From the NCBI GenBank assembly GCA_963812015.1, contig CAWETI010000003.1:1536001-1600000 (forward strand): a stretch of DNA of 64,000 nt, given 5' to 3'. Shown here piece after piece: positions 13,757 through 22,597 of the stretch. Each line of letters starts with the position of its first letter. Position 1 is the first letter of the stretch. The stretch comes from an uncultured delta proteobacterium. Lineage in GTDB: Bacteria; Desulfobacterota; Desulfobaccia; Desulfobaccales; 0-14-0-80-60-11. The notes beneath the pieces were generated by a model, which worked only from the letters and a program-made list of their open reading frames with translations, made no database searches and was not told the DNA's origin. The position numbers and the translations under genes are program-made.

Positions 13757-14086
13757 ATGACCCACAACCCCGAAACCAAACTTATCGTCTACGGCAGCCT
13801 GGCCCCGGGCGGGTCTAACGCCTTTATCCTGGGGGGCCTCGTCGGGGAGTGGTATCCCTGCCTCATCCGGGGCCACCTGGGCGCCTACCGGGGCTTTAAA
13901 TCTTTCCGCTACGACCCCAACGGGCCGGAACACACGGCCTGGCTCCTGTCGTCCGCCGACCTGCCCCGGGTTATCTCGGAGCTGGACGACTTCGAGGGGG
14001 AGGAATACGAGCGCAGCATCATCCCCGCCAGGGTGGGCGACCGCTGGGTCATGGCCCAGGTCTATGAGGGAAGGTATTGCGAATGA
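13757..14086 (+). CDS. Gamma-glutamylcyclotransferase (AIG2-like) family protein
   Basis: LIVYGSLAPG N-terminal motif and LDDFEGEEYER. Confidence 0.8.
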   Translation: MTHNPETKLIVYGSLAPGGSNAFILGGLVGEWYPCLIRGHLGAYRGFKSFRYDPNGPEHTAWLLSSADLPRVISELDDFEGEEYERSIIPARVGDRWVMAQVYEGRYCE

Positions 14087-14129
14087 GGGTCGAGACAGTC
14101 AGGTGAAATTTCCATCAGAGGAGGCAGTT

Positions 14130-14636
14130 ATGAACATGCAGGCATTCAAGGTATGGCTCGCTCTGGCGCTGGTGTTCGGCTTGGTGGCCACCGCCATGGC
14201 CCAGCCCCCCCAGCCGCCCCCGACTGGGTCCGGGGGCTCGGGCCAGGCCCTGCTCAACCTGGACAACACCGTGGCCCTGCACGGATACGACCCGGTGGCT
14301 TATTTCACCGACAACCAGGCGGTTAAAGGCAACAAGCGTATTCTGGAACGGCTCGGGAGCGCCACGTACTATTTTGCCTCCCGGGGCAACCGCTATGAGT
14401 TTCTGGGGGATGCCCCCCGCTATCAGCCGCAATTCGGCGGGTACTGCGCCGCCTCTATGGCCATGGGCCGGCTGGAGGACATCAATCCCCACCTGTTTAT
14501 CATCTTTGAAGGGAAGCTCTACCTGTTCAACAACCCTGATGCCGAGGCCATGTTTATGCGAGACCCCCGCCGGATGGCCCATGAGGCCAGGGAGCAGTAC
14601 TTTAAAATCGCCGCCCATCAGCGTTCCTTCTATTAA
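14130..14636 (+). CDS. Exported YHS-domain protein (Cys-form member of the YHS (seleno)protein family)
   Basis: Signal peptide, ALHGYDPVAYF, YQPQFGGYCA, GKLYLF; GAGGAGG RBS. Confidence 0.85.
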   Translation: MNMQAFKVWLALALVFGLVATAMAQPPQPPPTGSGGSGQALLNLDNTVALHGYDPVAYFTDNQAVKGNKRILERLGSATYYFASRGNRYEFLGDAPRYQPQFGGYCAASMAMGRLEDINPHLFIIFEGKLYLFNNPDAEAMFMRDPRRMAHEAREQYFKIAAHQRSFY

Positions 14637-16114: not shown

Positions 16115-17482
16115 TTAGCGCGTTAGCCAGCGGTCGTTGCGGACGGTGATGAAGGCGTATGGCTGCACCCAGTTGAGGGCGAAGAAGGCGAAGTAGGAGT
16201 AAATGATCCCGTAGACGAAATCCATGTCCCGTTCCTGGTGGATATAGTAGTACATCCACACCAGGGTGAAGATCCCCAACCCGGCGAAAAACTTCATGAT
16301 GACGATGGGATAGAGATAGAAGGAGATGAGCAGCATGCCCAGGAAGAGGTAGGTCAAGGGAAACTCGATCTGGGTCATGAAAAAGTCGATAATGGGCAGC
16401 AGCCGGTGTTTGGCCCGGTATTTGCTGAAGATGAACTTAAGCTGGACCCAGTTTTCCCGGAAATTGCTGCGGTCCCAGCGGAGGTACATGCGGCACAGGC
16501 CCCGGTAGGATTCGGGCACCAGGGTGTGGACGACGGCGCTGCGCTGGTAGGAGGTATAGTAGCCCTGGCGCAGGACGAAGTTGGTCAGGGCCCGGTCTTC
16601 GCCGATGTTGGCCGGCAGGCCCATGAAGGTCTGGGTGCGCCACTCCTTCAAGACGGGTTTAAGGGCCTTGGCCCGGTAGGCCGACAGGGCCCCGGGGGTG
16701 CAGGTGACGCAGCCGTACTTGCTTTGTGAGGCCCTGAGAAAATCGAAGGCCAGGACGAAGCGCACGGCCAGCATCCGGGCCATGACACAGCGCCCGCGGT
16801 TGTAGACCTTGACGTTGCCCGCCACTGCGCCGATCTGAGCATCATTGAGCATGGGGGCGATGACCTGCTTCACGGTATCGGGGGAAATCACGCTGTCGGA
16901 GTCGATGGTGACGAAGTACTCCCCTTTGCCCCGGATGAAGCCGGCGTACAGGCCTTCCTTCTTGCCCCGGTTTTTGGGGAAGCGGATGGCCTTGATCAGC
17001 TTGGGGTAGCGTTGCCGGGCCCGGTCAATGTAAGACCAGGTATCGTCCTTGGAACCGTCGTCGATGCAGATAATCTCCAGCCGGTCGGCGGGGTAGTCCG
17101 AGGCGACCGCGGCGTAAATGGCCTTCTCCACCATGGCCCCTTCGTTATAAGCCGGGATGATGACGGTGACCCGGGGCAGGGGGCCCGGCGGCAGGGGATA
17201 AGGTTTATACCGTAACCAGAGCACGGTGCGCACCAGCTGAAAGGCCAGGTAGGCCAGGGTGAAGCCGGCGCCCAGGGCCATCAGGGGAGACCCGAAGCTC
17301 TGGCGGCTCAGCAGTTGCAAATAGCCGTTAAAGGAGCCCACTTTCAGGGAAATAATCAAAGAGAGCGACAGGATTAACGGTACCAGGATCTTAAGGGTCA
17401 GGTCCAAAATCTGTATCCGCTGTTCCTCTTTGGAGCGCCATTTCACCTGGGTCCAGGGAAAAGCAGAGGTCGTGGTTCGCAT
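16115..17482 (-). CDS. Processive GT2 glycosyltransferase, hyaluronan synthase/NodC-like
   Basis: IPAYNE, DDGS, DSDS, CTPGALSAYR, GEDRALT, MYLRW (QxxRW position); N- and C-terminal TM segments. Confidence 0.85.
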   Translation of the reverse strand: MRTTTSAFPWTQVKWRSKEEQRIQILDLTLKILVPLILSLSLIISLKVGSFNGYLQLLSRQSFGSPLMALGAGFTLAYLAFQLVRTVLWLRYKPYPLPPGPLPRVTVIIPAYNEGAMVEKAIYAAVASDYPADRLEIICIDDGSKDDTWSYIDRARQRYPKLIKAIRFPKNRGKKEGLYAGFIRGKGEYFVTIDSDSVISPDTVKQVIAPMLNDAQIGAVAGNVKVYNRGRCVMARMLAVRFVLAFDFLRASQSKYGCVTCTPGALSAYRAKALKPVLKEWRTQTFMGLPANIGEDRALTNFVLRQGYYTSYQRSAVVHTLVPESYRGLCRMYLRWDRSNFRENWVQLKFIFSKYRAKHRLLPIIDFFMTQIEFPLTYLFLGMLLISFYLYPIVIMKFFAGLGIFTLVWMYYYIHQERDMDFVYGIIYSYFAFFALNWVQPYAFITVRNDRWLTR

Positions 17483-17532
17483 ATAGGTCGGTTCCTCGCA
17501 TTCAGGTCAAAATCAAACTAACGCTTAGCTTA

Positions 17533-17548
17533 TGCAATTGGCTTGCCA
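17533..17548 (-). promoter_or_regulatory. Sigma-54 (-24/-12) promoter for the GT2 gene
   Basis: Minus strand TGGCAAGCCAATTGCA with exact GG-N10-GC spacing, about 50 nt upstream of the start codon. Confidence 0.75.
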
Positions 17549-17913
17549 AGCCATTCAAAAATCCTGAAATAAATCTAGCTGAATTACTTGGTAAATTTAC
17601 TTGGGCCACAGGTTATCCCCGGGGGTGATCCAGGAAAATTCTCTCCTTGAGAGAACGGACCGGAACGTTGATAAAAAATTCTCAAATTGAGAAAGTTACT
17701 GTATCCGCTGGGTGGTTTGGACGCCTCATCCCGGGGGCAGAAGACCGGAGGAGTACCCCCGACGAAAAAATATGCGAAATATTTTGCTTCCGGAGAGATG
17801 AGGCGGAGTTCACATTTTCGGCATCTTGTGGTAAGTAAGACAGGTAAGATTATTTTTCGAGCGTTGGCAAGTTGGCCCGTTAACCAGAGTTCTCAACCCA
17901 TAGGAAAGACGGC

Positions 17914-19353
17914 ATGGAGGCAACGGAGAAACCCGCAGGGGTAGAGATGAAGGCAGGGCTAAAACTCTGTCAATTGGGGCAGGAGGTGAGTGTGCCCGCC
18001 GGCACGCGCATCGTCGATCAGGGTGGGGCCCCGGAATTTTTCTATGTCATTCAATCCGGCCGGGTCCGCGTCTTCCGGGAGTCCGAAGACCTGATTCGCA
18101 CCAATTTAACCGAGTTGGGCGCCGGGGCCTATTTTGGGGAGGTGGCCCTGGTCACGGGGCAACCCCGCAGCGCCTCGGTGGAGGCCGCGGAAGACTCAAT
18201 CCTCATCAAGGTTTCCAAGGAGGAATTCGACCGCCTGTTGGATCAGAATCCCCAGCTGGCCCGTCACATCATCCAGCAGTTGGCCGGTTGGTTGGTGGCC
18301 GGGGACCGCCGCCTGGAAACCGAAGTGGTGCACCAGGTCAAGCTGCGTCAGGTCTCCTGGTTTGATTATGTGCTGATGCTGGGCTTGAGCCTCGTTCTCT
18401 CCCTGGTCGTCAATATTTACAACGACAACCGGATTCCCCTGATTCACGGTTGGGGCGAAAAAAACGACATTCCCGAAATTACTCTCAGCCAGGCCCAGGA
18501 TTTGTACAAGAAGAACGCAGCCATTTTCATTGATGCCAGAAAAAGCGCCTTTTATAACCAGGAACACATCCAGGGCGCCCAGAACCTGCCGGAGATCTTG
18601 TTCGATATTATGTTCCCCATGTTCCAGTTCTCGGTGACCCAGATGGAGGGCGCCAAGGACAAAACCTTGATCGTTTACGGCGGCACCTTCAGCCGGCGTA
18701 TGGATCTCGATCTGGCCCGCATGCTCATCCATAAAGGTATGGGGCATGTGGAGGTACTCAAAGATTACACCGGATGGGGAAAGGCTTTTCCCTTAAAAGG
18801 ACAAGAGCCCAAGGAAGCCGCCAGCCTACCATTGGGTCTGCCGGGCTATCTTGAATGGATTCCGGTGATCATCTTTGGGCTGATCTTAATTCCGCCCCTC
18901 TGGCGCAGCCCTTATCTATCGGTGTTTTGCCGGCTGTTGTTGGGCGCCATCTTCGTTTCCTTCGCCTTGAGCAAAATCATGCGGCCGGCGGTCTTCGCTT
19001 TGAACGTGGTGGATTACGGCATGATGCCCGCCTTCGGAGTGAACCTGTGGTCCCTGGCCCTGCCCTGGGCCGAACTGGTCGTCGGGTTGTTCCTGATCCT
19101 GGGTATTCGCACCCGGGCCGCGGCTACGCTGATCGCCGCCATGAACGTCATCTTTATTGTGGGGCTGGTCAATGCCATTCTGCACCATATGCCCATTAAC
19201 TGCGGGTGTGTGGGCGAAGTGGGTGAACCGGTGAACTGGTTGAAAGTTATGAAGAATACCGCGATGCTGGTCATGTGCATCCAAATCTTCCTCTACGATC
19301 GGTTTTTGGTGTTGGATCGGGGAGGATTTATTTTGCGGGATAGAAAGATATGA
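17914..19353 (+). CDS. Fusion protein: cyclic-nucleotide-binding domain + TM + rhodanese-like domain + MauE/DoxX membrane domain
   Basis: YFGEVAL...PRSASV (cNMP cassette); FIDARK..FYNQEHIQGAQNLP (rhodanese); RLLLGAIF..ALSKI, LPWAELVVG, INCGCVG (MauE/DoxX). Confidence 0.85.
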   Translation: MEATEKPAGVEMKAGLKLCQLGQEVSVPAGTRIVDQGGAPEFFYVIQSGRVRVFRESEDLIRTNLTELGAGAYFGEVALVTGQPRSASVEAAEDSILIKVSKEEFDRLLDQNPQLARHIIQQLAGWLVAGDRRLETEVVHQVKLRQVSWFDYVLMLGLSLVLSLVVNIYNDNRIPLIHGWGEKNDIPEITLSQAQDLYKKNAAIFIDARKSAFYNQEHIQGAQNLPEILFDIMFPMFQFSVTQMEGAKDKTLIVYGGTFSRRMDLDLARMLIHKGMGHVEVLKDYTGWGKAFPLKGQEPKEAASLPLGLPGYLEWIPVIIFGLILIPPLWRSPYLSVFCRLLLGAIFVSFALSKIMRPAVFALNVVDYGMMPAFGVNLWSLALPWAELVVGLFLILGIRTRAAATLIAAMNVIFIVGLVNAILHHMPINCGCVGEVGEPVNWLKVMKNTAMLVMCIQIFLYDRFLVLDRGGFILRDRKI

Positions 19354-19727
19354 AGAAAAACCTTATAAAATTGGCCGTGGTCCTGGGTTTGATCATGTTC
19401 GGCCTGGTTTTGGGAGGCTGTGGGGAGTCTCGATCCCAATTTGCCGGGTCGTATAGATCCGTGGAGCCCTTCGCGGGAAAAAATTTCGTTGATCTTACCC
19501 TCCAAGACAGTGGCAAGGGGAGCTGGGCGCTGGCGGGTAAAACCGTTGAGTTCACCTGGGTGGTGAATGATGGCAAGATTTGGATTTATACCAAACAGGG
19601 CGCCATCCTCATTGTCACCCCCAGTGAGGGTGGAAAAATATTGTCGGCGGATATAAGCGGCGATTGGCACCCCGGTTGTCCCGCCGGTTCTTGCGTGGTC
19701 TTTAAGCGGGTCGCGGAAGGAGGGTAA
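19350..19727 (+). CDS. Small lipoprotein of unknown function
   Basis: Lipobox LGGC after a hydrophobic signal; C-terminal WHPGCPAGSC; ATGA overlap with the upstream gene. Confidence 0.75.
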   Translation: MKKNLIKLAVVLGLIMFGLVLGGCGESRSQFAGSYRSVEPFAGKNFVDLTLQDSGKGSWALAGKTVEFTWVVNDGKIWIYTKQGAILIVTPSEGGKILSADISGDWHPGCPAGSCVVFKRVAEGG

Positions 19728-19749
19728 CAGCATTATTTGTCTGAAGATT

Positions 19750-20955
19750 TTGACCGAAAAACCGGGCAGAATCCTGATTCGACTGCTCGTGGTGTTGGTT
19801 TGCCTTTCCCAACCGGCCTGGGGGGCCGGCGACGCCGTGGAAGTGCGCCGCCTGGGGTTAAGCAAGGTGGGGGAGAATACCCTCCTCACCGTGGTCCTGG
19901 ACCGGGCGGCGACCCCTCAGGTGACTTTTCGGGGCGTGTCGGGTAAACCACAACTGATCGTGGAATTTCCCGGGGCGCGTTCCGGGAGGCTTCCCAGCCA
20001 CCTGGAGGGCGATGAGCTGATGGTCCAGCAGGTTCTCACCGAAACCGTCTCCCCCGGGGGCGGGGTGCGCATCATCCTGGACCTCTTCCCCGAGAAACCC
20101 TACTCCTACTGGAAGCAGATTCGGCCCGGCAAAGGGGGGCAGTCATTTTTCATCTTGGGGGTAAAGCCCGACCTCAAGGCGCTCCCGGTCCAGGCGAAAG
20201 TCATCCCATCCTCGGAACCGGAGCCCGCCCCCGGAGCGCCGGAGCCCAGTGGGGGAGTTCGAGAGAATGATTTGGCGCCTGCGGCGCCGGAGGCGGCAGA
20301 CGAAGGGGGCGGCTATACGGAACCCCAGGGCAGCGTGGCCCCCGGCAGTTTTGCCGAGGTGCGCCGTTTGATGCCCAAGGCCGCCCAGTTGCTGCAAAGT
20401 CTGGAAACCGATGGCTGGACCGTGTCCGAGTCCAATCGGTACGATCGCCCGGGGCGGCGCTTGAGCCGCGATTTCATCCTCACCAACCGCAAGTATCCGG
20501 AATTGTCGGTGAAGATCGCCTACCTGCCGGCCAACCTCCCCAACACGCCCAACATCGGCATCATCATGTTGACCACGGACAATCTCCCCAGCGAGGCCGC
20601 CAAAGAATACCAGGGCTTGCGGCAGTGGAGTTTCGCCAAGATTAAGCAGAAATACGAAGATATCGGCGATTTCTTTGACGATGCCTTAAAACCCTTACGG
20701 GTGAAGTTGCGCGAGGAGACCAAGAGCATAGCCTTGCGCAACCCCGCGGTGTTCCAAAACTTCTTGAAGCTCTCCTGTCCGGACAATCCCCAGGTGGCGG
20801 ATCAGGTGATGAAGCTCGTGCAGCAGAAGGTCAGCCCCCGGTTTGAAGGGGTGCAGTACACCGTGTCGGAAAAGCCTCTGGTAATCTTGAATCTGGTGGA
20901 TTTTCTCTACGTGAAGGTCTATTTCCTGGATGCATCTCAAGGAGGAAGTTCATGA
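19750..20955 (+). CDS. Exported protein with N-terminal AMIN-like domain, Pro-rich linker and unknown C-terminal domain
   Basis: Signal peptide (..PAWG), PQLIVEFPGA and GVRIILDL AMIN-like motifs; TTG start. Confidence 0.7.
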   Translation: MTEKPGRILIRLLVVLVCLSQPAWGAGDAVEVRRLGLSKVGENTLLTVVLDRAATPQVTFRGVSGKPQLIVEFPGARSGRLPSHLEGDELMVQQVLTETVSPGGGVRIILDLFPEKPYSYWKQIRPGKGGQSFFILGVKPDLKALPVQAKVIPSSEPEPAPGAPEPSGGVRENDLAPAAPEAADEGGGYTEPQGSVAPGSFAEVRRLMPKAAQLLQSLETDGWTVSESNRYDRPGRRLSRDFILTNRKYPELSVKIAYLPANLPNTPNIGIIMLTTDNLPSEAAKEYQGLRQWSFAKIKQKYEDIGDFFDDALKPLRVKLREETKSIALRNPAVFQNFLKLSCPDNPQVADQVMKLVQQKVSPRFEGVQYTVSEKPLVILNLVDFLYVKVYFLDASQGGSS

Positions 20956-21176
20956 CCAAGGAGATCACCATCTTCGGCAAGCAGACCTGACCTTTTACCC
21001 TAAAGGCCCGGGAGGCTAAGACCAAAGAGGGGTTGACGGTCATTTATCGGGATGTCAAAGAGGACGCCCAGGCCCTGGAAGAGATGCTGCGGCTCACCCA
21101 GGGCAACCGGCGGGTGCCGGTCATGGTGGAGAATGACCAAATCAGCATCGGCTTTGGGGGCTCCTGAAGGGTATGA
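20952..21176 (+). CDS. Uxx-star family glutaredoxin-like selenoprotein with two Sec residues (74 aa)
   Basis: Manual translation MTKEITIFGKQT-U-PFTLKAREAKTKEGLTVIYRDVKEDAQALEEMLRLTQGNRRVPVMVENDQISIGFGGS-U-RV*; in-frame TGA at 20988 and 21165; Grx-like RRVPV and IGF motifs; GGAGG RBS; ATGA overlap. Confidence 0.85.
20991..21032 (+). promoter_or_regulatory. Candidate bacterial SECIS hairpin for the first UGA
   Basis: Apical stem GGCC/GGCT (21005-21017) with G-rich loop CGGGA about 19 nt after the UGA; weaker lower pairing CCTTT/AAAGAGG. Confidence 0.55.
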
Positions 21177-21180
21177 ACCA

Positions 21181-21195
21181 CCCGCAGGTTGCGGG
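21181..21195 (+). promoter_or_regulatory. Candidate bacterial SECIS hairpin for the second UGA
   Basis: Perfect stem CCCGCA/TGCGGG with loop GGT about 20 nt after the UGA at 21165; lies 3' of the stop codon. Confidence 0.65.
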
Positions 21196-21599
21196 ATTTG
21201 AGGATTGACTCGGAAGGCCAGGCCGGCGACTCAAGGTCAACGACCCGGCCTTTCCCCGTTTCGTGACATCACTTAACCTGGGCCGACCTTAAGGGCGGCA
21301 CGCCTTCAGCCCTGGGGCTATAATCAACCGCCACGTCTGCCTACCCCCTTGAGCCACCCTATCGCCACCTCAGAGCAGTTGCCAGACTGACCCTTCCCAC
21401 CGTTTCATGCCGCTTTTTGTAGGGACGCACCCACAGGTGCCCCCAGGTTCAATGCGTTCATTTTTAACTGCACCCCCGTATAACTTCCGCCGCGCCCGAG
21501 AAAGGCCTGGCCCCTGCCGGCCTGATCTGTCGCCGGCCGGGGCGGCTTAATCTAAAATATCTATAAACCCGAATGGTTATATGAAATCGTTTAACTTCC

Positions 21600-21864
21600 T
21601 GGGAATAAATGACGAATAAAAACCTGGGAAGGAGGGAAGGAGGAAGGTTCGCCTCGGAGAAGTGGAGGAAAGCAGATTAATTAAATATGGATAATTATTC
21701 GAAATAATTAATAAAAATATCACAATGTGCGCAGCCCCCAGAATAACTTAGGGTTGTGATAAAAACCCCCCACTTCAGATGAGAAAAGGCGATAAAAATG
21801 CATTAGGCACCCACTTATCTAAAATATTATCCACAAAACCTCAGGCGGTCGCCATTGCGAATAA
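21600..21864. promoter_or_regulatory. Cluster of DnaA boxes in an AT-rich intergenic region
   Basis: Perfect TTATCCACA at 21827-21835; one-mismatch boxes at 21600, 21686, 21755 and 21856. Confidence 0.5.
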
Positions 21865-21933
21865 TAGAACAATTACTAAAAACTAAAAATGACTGAAAAA
21901 CCAGTAGGTTAAATGAATTAGAAAAAAATTCTC

Positions 21934-21963
21934 TTGACAAGGCATATTTCCTTGGGGTATAGG
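21934..21963 (+). promoter_or_regulatory. Putative sigma-70 promoter for the leader / 3D-domain gene
   Basis: TTGACA-N18-TATAGG. Confidence 0.5.
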
Positions 21964-22027
21964 TAACCAACAATTACATAAGCCCACATGGGTGTGCGGC
22001 AGATAGTGTACTTCACCATTGGATTGA

Positions 22028-22184
22028 TGGGGATGGGAGCCTGAAACCGGACGGCCGCTGATGCCGGGGGAACGTTTCCTCCGGGTGCAACGGCTCGAGG
22101 CTGAAGGCGAAAAAGAACTATCGAAGCGATCCCGGGGCCAAGGCCCTACCAGTTTCCTGGCAATACCTGTCTCACTAGTCCCCA
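22028..22184 (+). ncRNA. Candidate structured leader RNA (divergent c-di-AMP/ydaO-like)
   Basis: Nested helices 22028-33/22179-84, 22043-50/22149-56 and 22064-78/22123-35; ordered ydaO-like motifs CCGCTGA, CCGGGGGAAC, GGGTGCAA, AGCGATCCCGG. Confidence 0.35.
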
Positions 22185-22228
22185 ACCATCCGTAAGATTT
22201 CTAGGGCGTCCCAAAGCGAGGGAGAACC

Positions 22229-22597
22229 ATGAGAAAAAAGGCGATGGTGGTATTTTGTCTCTTAGGGATGGGGATGTTTGCCTGTCCTCGACCTACCTTG
22301 TGCGTGACCATGACGATAGTTTCGGTAACGGCCTATCATCATTGCCCCGGCAGCAAAGGCATTACGTCTTCGGGGCGCCGGGTCCAAACCGGCATGATCG
22401 CCCTCAGCCGGGATTTGGAGCGGAACTTGAATATGGAGTTTGGCGATAAGGTATTACTCCACGGCATGGGAGTCTTTGAGTTTCAAGACCGCATGGCTCC
22501 CCGGTGGAACAAAAAGGTAGACGTCTACCTGGATTGCCAGGCGAAAGCCAGGCGCTTCGGAATGAAACACTACGTAGTCCTGGTCAAGCTGGTCTGA
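22229..22597 (+). CDS. 3D-domain (peptidoglycan-remodelling, MltA-related) exported protein
   Basis: Signal peptide; VTAY, GITSSG, IALSRD, QDRM, VDVY, ARRFG. Confidence 0.85.
   Translation: MRKKAMVVFCLLGMGMFACPRPTLCVTMTIVSVTAYHHCPGSKGITSSGRRVQTGMIALSRDLERNLNMEFGDKVLLHGMGVFEFQDRMAPRWNKKVDVYLDCQAKARRFGMKHYVVLVKLV

Follow-up and report, generated by a model that had tools for sequence, protein, structure and literature searches.

Bacterial disulfide formation is generally regarded as a constitutive housekeeping process tied to respiration, and we know of no DsbB-like enzyme that is gated by a second messenger. The closest described systems are the MauE proteins of Desulfatibacillum aliphaticivorans and Caldithrix abyssi, which complement E. 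coli dsbB for motility and PhoA, depend on the two cysteines of a periplasmic CGC motif and carry a conserved Lys and a conserved Glu close to a predicted quinone site (preprint 10.64898/2026.03.05.709764). A Phe after the CXC is highly conserved in the preprint's sequence logo, is proposed to help quinone binding and was not an inclusion criterion; its authors also refer to earlier work in which MauE was described as a possible reductase (10.64898/2026.03.05.709764). Here we describe a locus of four genes, which we call A to D, in a 64,000-nucleotide window of the genome of an uncultured delta proteobacterium of the order Desulfobaccales (assembly GCA_963812015.1, contig CAWETI010000003.1, positions 1,536,001 to 1,600,000 of the forward strand; all coordinates below are positions within this window). 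Gene A encodes a MauE domain fused to a cyclic-nucleotide-binding domain and a rhodanese domain that lacks its catalytic Cys. By analogy with the tested MauE proteins, we propose, with a probability of about 0.45, that the product may be a DsbB-like generator of disulfides whose accessory subunit is under signal control.

Gene A and its MauE domain

All four genes lie on the forward strand. Gene A (17914..19353, 479 aa) encodes the fusion protein, gene B (19350..19727, 125 aa) a lipoprotein, gene C (19750..20955, 401 aa) a secreted protein with an AMIN fold and gene D (20952..21176, 74 aa) a glutaredoxin-like selenoprotein with two selenocysteines (Sec). We confirmed the ATGA overlaps between A and B (19350-19353) and between C and D (20952-20955) and the 22-nt gap between B and C that were described in the initial annotation, and the overlaps suggest that the four genes are co-transcribed. 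The initial annotation carried the locus on to 21195; the true stop codon of D is at 21174-21176, and the extra part belongs to a hairpin in the 3' untranslated region (21180-21196).

We found three Pfam domains in A, all above cut-off: cNMP_binding (aa 25-112), Rhodanese (aa 192-282) and MauE (aa 334-456). The four-helix MauE/DoxX domain (18913..19299) scores 80.2 bits with PF07291 as compared to a cut-off of 27. The CGC motif noted in the initial annotation is C430-G431-C432 (19201-19209); it lies in the loop that connects helices 3 and 4 and is invariant in 57/57 MauE rows. These are the only conserved Cys residues of the domain (C339 and C455 vary), and K354 in helix 1 and E387 in helix 2 are invariant in 36/36 rows. 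A had no DsbD_TM match in the Pfam scan. In the hydropathy profile of A, a single helix precedes the rhodanese, a linker helix follows it and MauE contributes four more. The first, a single transmembrane (TM) helix (18358..18420, aa 149-169), would place the next domain in the periplasm, and the linker TM helix of the fused form (18844..18900, aa 311-329) would bring the chain back to the cytoplasm before MauE; separate sensor proteins, in which MauE is not fused, stop after the rhodanese domain. There are basic residues in the short loop and the tail of the MauE domain, consistent with a periplasmic CGC. From these features, we infer that the cNMP domain is cytoplasmic and that the rhodanese domain and the CGC are periplasmic.

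The predicted cytoplasmic cNMP-binding domain (17986..18249; PF00027, 78.6 bits) has an intact phosphate-binding cassette of the form GE...R(S/T), with G75-E76 and R85-S86, and matches PKA/PKG at E values of 1e-20 to 1e-19. The cassette Arg is kept in 20/20 cNMP domains of the order to which this genome belongs (hereafter the own order) and in 38/46 overall. The domain is predicted to sense cyclic AMP or cyclic GMP (cAMP, cGMP). The cyclic-nucleotide-regulated membrane redox device of the initial annotation is plausible; that it would be fed by D is not supported, as described below. Across 69 genomes of the family, A is an intact fusion in 60, two genes in 3 and broken by a frameshift or a contig end in 6.

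We searched six module genomes, including this one: DsbB had no match in 6/6, and VKOR was not above cut-off in 5/6 and had no match in this genome. The genome has two DsbD/CcdA-type genes available for reductant export. Two other MauE genes (G000:C2:1567976-1569277 and G000:C3:1333630-1334714) each lie beside a Cys-bearing exported rhodanese (YCDQVSC and YCGFVKC, respectively). The first pair is followed by a H+-pyrophosphatase-like gene and the second is found among 2-hydroxyacyl-CoA dehydratase-like genes. Such CxxxxC rhodaneses may represent MauE redox partners of a class not recognised so far.

A phylum-wide module with a cysteine-less rhodanese

In a phylum sample of 401 genomes, we found B in 41 genomes from ten families, at 51 places, 50 of which are beside a module MauE gene. 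The core conserved across the ten families consists of a protein with a cytoplasmic signal-input domain, a TM helix and a pseudo-rhodanese, together with MauE and a beta-barrel lipoprotein. We read 40 regions outside the family, taken from the top of 180 matches; 3 were from a sister family, 34 were module loci outside the order and 3 were plain rhodanese-MauE pairs. In the outside loci, the module usually appears as separate genes in the order redoxin, sensor-TM-rhodanese, MauE and B. When one outside member was used to scan named genomes, 8 full-length loci were returned among 80. A homologue of the marker lipoprotein B is encoded by a cultured species, Syntrophobacter fumaroxidans. The A-B junction, at –10 to +5 nt in 20/20 own-order loci, is the tightest of the operon. 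It is very probable that A and B are one functional unit. In the gene-neighbourhood analysis, which had been suggested as the check on the four-gene system, the order A-B-C-D is kept in the family, but phylum-wide it is the parts contained in A and B that travel together; C and D do not belong to this wider module, and D is unlinked outside the order.

B has a lipobox Cys at residue 24 and a predicted structure of a small eight-stranded lipocalin-like barrel (predicted local distance difference test, pLDDT, 81). Its closest fold is TP0435 (Z 11.3, root-mean-square deviation 2.9, 92 aligned), with weaker matches to NlpE (Z 8.4) and YedD (Z 8.1). In the Atlas, B falls into unnamed clusters, with leads to DUF5640 (0.91) and Lipocalin_4 (0.90). 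The CxxxxC that was proposed as a redox centre is present in this B, at residues 110-115 (19677-19694) within a low-confidence loop of the model; among B homologues it is found in 21/52, which are only those of the own order and two nested copies in another family, and we rejected it as a universal redox centre. At 31/52 loci there is no Cys pair in B, so the folding of the module's own proteins is not the only reason for MauE to be there.

A redoxin gene with a signal-peptide-like start adjoins 25/34 outside loci, with CxxC in 17 and UxxC in 8. This secreted redoxin, and not the selenoprotein D or the AMIN protein C that the initial annotation had taken as partners, is the thiol protein that travels with the module. 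In the own order, redoxins are unlinked in 5/5 genomes tested. By analogy with the characterised MauE proteins, MauE probably oxidises the secreted redoxin and passes the electrons to quinone. Characterised MauE proteins act as DsbB-like oxidases, which is opposite to the direction of the relay proposed in the initial annotation (10.64898/2026.03.05.709764). At eight loci (L081, L087, L090, L094, L099, L100, L111 and L112) we observed secreted UPxC redoxins that open-reading-frame calling splits at the Sec codon, and these are likely mis-annotated as two genes.

The rhodanese domain of A (pseudo-rhodanese; 18421..18807, aa 170-298) has Y255-G256 where active rhodaneses have Tyr-Cys, and there is no Cys in the domain; the catalytic position is Gly256, not Cys or Sec. 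Its fold is nonetheless that of a rhodanese (33.8 bits in Pfam as compared to a cut-off of 22.2, and rhodanese matches in the PDB). The loop reads YG in 54/54 module rows, as compared to YC in 7 plain rows of the same alignment, and plain rhodaneses from MauE loci carry YC-x3-5-C in 15/15. A quick tree of 128 columns groups the Cys-less domains into one clade (57 rows; SH-like approximate likelihood ratio test, SH-aLRT, 95). Within it, the fused rhodanese-MauE form is a single clade (18 rows, support 100), which includes two copies from another family that have A and B without C or D. As judged from its sequence, the domain is dead because it has no catalytic Cys, and hence it is not a redox centre; for the same reason we rejected the sulfur or selenium transfer that the initial annotation had assigned to it.

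A profile search of 1.8 billion representatives with the pseudo-rhodanese gave 106 matches at 1e-30. Among the best 150 matches, 123 are single-rhodanese proteins, and their N-terminus is GAF-like in 80, cNMP in 18 and neither in 25. The catalytic position of these 123 is Gly in 109 and Asp in 1; it was not read in 13 and is Cys in none. A Pfam scan of 75 proteins found a receiver domain in 3, two of them with HisKA, and cNMP together with GAF in 1. These are input domains that come with no output on the cytoplasmic side, and the presence of swappable cytoplasmic inputs on a constant TM-periplasmic domain suggests an inside-out effector. Long GAF-like variants (567-598 aa; L097, L106-L109 and L119) follow genes for a periplasmic-binding protein and a histidine kinase, with a receiver-containing gene in five of the six. 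Class III cyclase genes lie within 700 nt of the module in 4/34 outside loci and 4 kb away in a fifth, and one is directly upstream at L168; the genomes with an adjacent cyclase carry 2 to 20 cyclase matches, and this genome has 13 class III cyclase matches. We also considered a link between cyclase and redoxin in the own order and rejected it, as it was present at only 1/6 loci.

These data can be arranged into a mechanism. By sequence, the MauE domain of A retains the CGC, the Lys and the Glu. If it works as the two characterised homologues do, its periplasmic CGC would accept electrons from a thioredoxin-fold partner and hand them to quinone, and the gene order in relatives suggests that this partner would be a secreted CxxC or UxxC redoxin, encoded elsewhere in this genome. 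The rhodanese has lost both Cys of the MauE-adjacent rhodaneses and acquired exchangeable signal-input domains; we tentatively suggest that the pseudo-rhodanese descended from a two-Cys MauE partner and gates MauE in response to cyclic nucleotides. Ligand binding would shift the TM helix and alter the way in which the pseudo-rhodanese contacts the CGC loop or lipoprotein B, and this could let the cell turn disulfide formation on or off from the inside. A more speculative extension is second-messenger-gated oxidative folding, in which cAMP or cGMP, GAF ligands or receiver phosphorylation would time disulfide formation by MauE. The dead rhodanese, derived from a former redox partner, would be the switch, a Sec redoxin would act as a DsbA-like carrier in some lineages, and the CxxxxC loop of B might be a substitute shuttle in this order.

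Several observations weigh against a gated DsbB-like generator. On the side of the electron path, the residue after the CGC is V433 in place of the usual Phe (F 19, V 9, Y 7 and W 1 among 36 rows), a redoxin is missing beside 9/34 outside loci, and the two CPHC redoxins of this genome sit about 160 kb away from the operon. Furthermore, the redoxin is beside heme-biosynthesis-like genes in 5/6 own-order loci read, and the redoxins score best with the reductase ResA, far below cut-off. There are three MauE genes in the genome in all, so A is not the sole candidate oxidase, and in genome G369 one B gene and one sensor gene are found apart from the MauE gene. On the side of the signal, the cassette Arg is missing in 8/46 cNMP domains, and the cyclase neighbours are all from one family, three with the same cyclase type, which leaves about two independent cases. 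The GAF identity of the long form comes from Pfam matches in 4 members, three of them below cut-off; the GAF-like N-terminus had no structure match in a PDB profile search, which gave one hit at E 0.52, and its comparison with a clear GAF protein gave a probability of 0.2%. Finally, the topology of A was derived from hydropathy only.

The module defines an unnamed, putative signalling output domain, a pseudo-rhodanese with swappable inputs. In addition, lipoprotein B provides a marker family, and UxxC redoxin selenoproteins gain a genomic context. If a MauE oxidase is indeed switched by cyclic nucleotides or a phosphorelay by way of a pseudo-enzyme that spans the membrane, anaerobic sulfate reducers and syntrophs would be able to time the oxidation of envelope proteins, for example to spare scarce quinone oxidising power.

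Alternative readings and genes C and D

The same parts could instead make an ungated scaffold or envelope-stress device, in which MauE is constitutive and the sensor-pseudo-rhodanese and B form a separate trans-envelope contact that reports or localises oxidative folding in the manner of an NlpE-type sentinel. The barrel of B resembles the NlpE N-terminal barrel (Z 8.4) as well as TP0435 (Z 11.3), A and B share the tightest junction, and non-catalytic rhodaneses elsewhere serve as interaction domains. However, a Z of 8.4 is a common-fold score, and the cytoplasmic domains that we found are inputs (cNMP, GAF-like, receiver), with a kinase-type phospho-acceptor in only 2/75 scanned proteins, which fits an inside-out effector better. 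We regard this device as doubtful.

A second alternative, which we consider unlikely, is a reductive or metalloid-detoxifying role, in which MauE would reduce periplasmic thiols or handle arsenic or metals and the UXX-star protein D would be a cytoplasmic helper belonging to the same regulon. Plain YCxxxxC rhodanese-MauE pairs do occur in ArsR/ArsP/Acr3-like operons (L153-L156 and L166), with a UXX-like glutaredoxin at L153 and L154, but we found no arsenic or metal genes recurring beside the pseudo-rhodanese module, and the UXX-like proteins of L153 and L154 lack the terminal Uxx. Roles as metal ligands have been suggested for UXX-star proteins in a review (PMC13188914). The ResA-like scores of the partner redoxins and the earlier report of MauE as a possible reductase also point in this direction, but direct tests of two MauE proteins gave oxidase activity (10.64898/2026.03.05.709764). 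As an observation on these operons, L153-L156 and L163-L166 contain plain rhodanese-MauE pairs and cation-efflux-MauE fusions (~490-530 aa) in ArsR/ArsP/Acr3-like contexts; one has a DsbD/CcdA gene and two have a one-Sec UXX-like glutaredoxin.

The remaining alternatives depend on genes C and D. Gene C encodes a secreted protein with no conserved Cys, laid out as an AMIN-fold domain, a Pro-rich linker and a conserved C-terminal alpha/beta domain. It matched no Pfam or NCBIfam family at E 0.1. The initial annotation called it an AMIN protein, and this stands for the fold and not for the profile: in the structural model, the N-terminal domain (about aa 26-141) is AMIN-like, matching AmiC with Z 14.0 (root-mean-square deviation 3.3, 111 aligned) and PilQ with Z 12.6 and 12.4, while the next unrelated fold scores 7.9 and Foldseek gives E 3e-4. 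AMIN domains generally bind peptidoglycan. The C-terminal domain (aa 200-395) has a strongly conserved stretch around EDIGD-x3-KPLR and a confident model; it gave no family, usable Atlas match or clear fold match, in a fold list filled by AMIN so that this domain was barely tested. Homologues of C come from Desulfobacca and Desulfobaccales, and full-length C is confined to 16 own-order genomes in the phylum sample, with 2 weak partial matches elsewhere.

Gene D belongs to UXX-star selenoprotein family 1 (NCBIfam NF041114, 104 bits as compared to a cut-off of 72), which is listed with UxxT and two Sec in a 2026 review (PMC13188914). Its Sec codons are UGA at codon 13 (20988-20990) and codon 72 (21165-21167). 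Among 18 homologues, the first UGA is replaced by Cys in 2, the second is present in all 18, and TAA, TAG and TGA all occur at the position of the true stop. A hairpin resembling a selenocysteine insertion sequence (SECIS) lies 17 nt after the first UGA (21005..21017, forward strand). It has four pairs and folds alike in 15/18 homologues; coding constraint also acts on this sequence, and the whole-stretch z-score is 0.63. Within the 3' untranslated region, 15 nt beyond the second UGA, a further SECIS-like hairpin (21180..21196, forward strand) shows covariation: 89.8% of cells are paired, both sides change in 5/6 pairs, slid controls give 32-52% and shuffles reach this value in 0/500, a count that is not a probability as the sequences are related. 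The genome also encodes selB (above cut-off) and tRNA-Sec. Sec decoding of D, with the UxxT and the terminal Uxx that had been noted from the start, is thus well supported. The selB search also returned two identical-scoring EF-Tu-like and two IF2-like matches, which fits the 5.7% contamination figure or a real duplication.

As D lacks a signal peptide and the cytoplasmic side of MauE lacks a conserved Cys, there is no evident entry point for D. Its family is above cut-off in 96/401 phylum genomes, mostly without the module, and is found in 0/34 outside module loci; in 10 outside module genomes with a match above cut-off, it is on another contig. We rejected D as a core module partner on this basis.

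Within the family, A, B and C are present in 69/69 genomes and D in 68/69. When we compared coordinates by hand, the order A-B-C-D was on one contig in 63/69 genomes, split by contig breaks with consistent ends in 5 and ended before D in 1, with 0 rearranged. The neighbours are kept about equally in the family (glycosyltransferase in 16/17 loci, or 17 with a call in another frame, and efp in 15/17), and we rejected family-level synteny as proof of joint function on these grounds. In the sister family the flanks differ, A-B-C are together in 3/3 and D is adjacent in 1; D was not found in the other two genomes (G206 and G443), both of which are 99% complete. The B-C gap exceeds 100 nt in 7/20 loci and reaches 860, and the C-D gap is –8 to +13 nt in 12/18 loci, a tight count that excludes values of –145, –193 and –101 as partial-alignment artefacts.

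These distributions bear on an order-specific four-part machine, in which A in the inner membrane, B as a CxxxxC shuttle replacing the lost redoxin gene, C as peptidoglycan anchor and client or scaffold, and D would act jointly. A-B-C are adjacent in 16/16 own-order genomes of the phylum sample, 3 of which have entirely different flanks, the Cys pair of B arises in the same lineage that lost the redoxin gene from the operon, and the C-D spacing is tight. However, the unrelated flanks are equally kept in the family, the B-C gap is often wide, the two nested copies in another family consist of A and B with neither C nor D, D was not found in G206 and G443, and C has no conserved Cys. Joint action of all four products is improbable, and we infer that C and D are likely later passengers, added to the operon within this order, co-expressed and outside the electron path. 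The original proposal, a cNMP-regulated relay of reductant or S/Se from a cytoplasmic selenoprotein through the membrane to envelope partners, is very improbable: the gene order is kept in the family and both Sec codons are real, but the rhodanese has no Cys, MauE has no conserved membrane or cytoplasmic Cys within reach of D, the two DsbD/CcdA-type genes are already suited to reductant export, and the D family mostly occurs without the module and never at the outside loci.

Promoters and flanking features

Upstream of A, we found a likely sigma70-type operon promoter on the forward strand (17809..17837) with a –35-like hexamer, a 17-nt spacer and an extended –10-like box. Both boxes are prominent in the consensus of 46 family upstream regions, in which three genomes were entered twice. 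This promoter was missed by the consensus scanner and by a strict pattern (0/46 upstream regions). The consensus promoter and terminator scan gave 2 and 4 sites as compared to 2.9 and 7.0 in shuffles, which is no excess and uninformative, and an Rfam search of 17400-22300 gave 0 matches at E 0.1.

On the minus strand, a sigma54-type –24/–12 motif (17533-17548) points at a divergent family 2 glycosyltransferase (GT2) gene (16115-17482), which is NodC/IcaA-like below cut-off. One or two TTCTC-n-GAGAA palindromes (17639-17693) are located about 90-150 nt upstream of this motif. The motif is present in 39/46 family loci and the palindrome in 46/46; together they are likely an enhancer-dependent promoter for the glycosyltransferase gene, and the palindromes could also act on the A-D operon. 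After D, about 1 kb is AT-rich and poor in open reading frames (21540-22010 flagged), followed by a small conserved secreted protein and efp. Further upstream, 14064-14636 encodes a YHS-domain protein above the cut-off of the (seleno)protein family NF041384, in a Cys form with no in-frame UGA.

Comparison with known systems

Apart from the B family and the C-terminal domain of C, all domains of the locus are known parts, and MauE has been known as a DsbB-like oxidase since 2026. For the arrangement, the initial annotation knew of no described pathway, and we likewise found no description of a sensor-pseudo-rhodanese/MauE/lipoprotein/redoxin module in full-text literature, mainly of non-subscription papers. 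The architecture is absent from the accessible passages of PMC13188914, 10.1101/2025.01.10.632315, PMC11252979 and PMC13047784, the last of which has no MauE, DoxX or cNMP passage among them, and the main text of 10.64898/2026.03.05.709764 does not mention rhodanese or cNMP domains.

The locus differs from a DsbD/CcdA-type relay, as A has no conserved pair of Cys embedded in the membrane that could be reached from the cytoplasm. In its protein sequence D belongs fully to UXX-star family 1, and only its operon position is lineage-specific. In the mycobacterial DoxX-SodA-SseA complex, SseA is presumably a rhodanese. As cited in PMC11252979, this complex ties a DoxX-superfamily membrane protein to a rhodanese-type protein in thiol homeostasis; in contrast, the module rhodanese is Cys-less and predicted to be periplasmic, and the module has a signal-input domain and no superoxide dismutase. 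The mauE-mauD genes of methylamine dehydrogenase clusters also place MauE beside a thioredoxin-fold CxxC protein. However, the module redoxins score far below the MauD cut-off (1/7 hits TIGR02661, at 25 bits as compared to 188.6), and methylamine dehydrogenase subunit genes were not among the recurrent module neighbours, which were the genes surveyed for them.

Plain membrane-anchored rhodanese (YCxxxxC) and MauE pairs, for which we found no description in the same body of literature, share with the module a single TM helix, a predicted periplasmic rhodanese fold and an adjoining MauE gene, and they are present in several families and twice in this genome. They differ in having two Cys, no signal-input domain and no B, and some are in arsenic-resistance-like operons. 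The closest system remains the MauE pathway of D. aliphaticivorans and C. abyssi, to which DsbB-DsbA and VKOR-thioredoxin are close by function. The module shares with it the four-helix domain, the CGC between helices 3 and 4, the Lys and the Glu, a genome without DsbB and, in relatives, a thioredoxin-fold neighbour. Whereas the tested MauE proteins stand alone, the MauE of this module comes with a signal-input/pseudo-rhodanese subunit, fused to it or encoded beside it, and with a barrel lipoprotein; A also has Val in place of the Phe after the motif.

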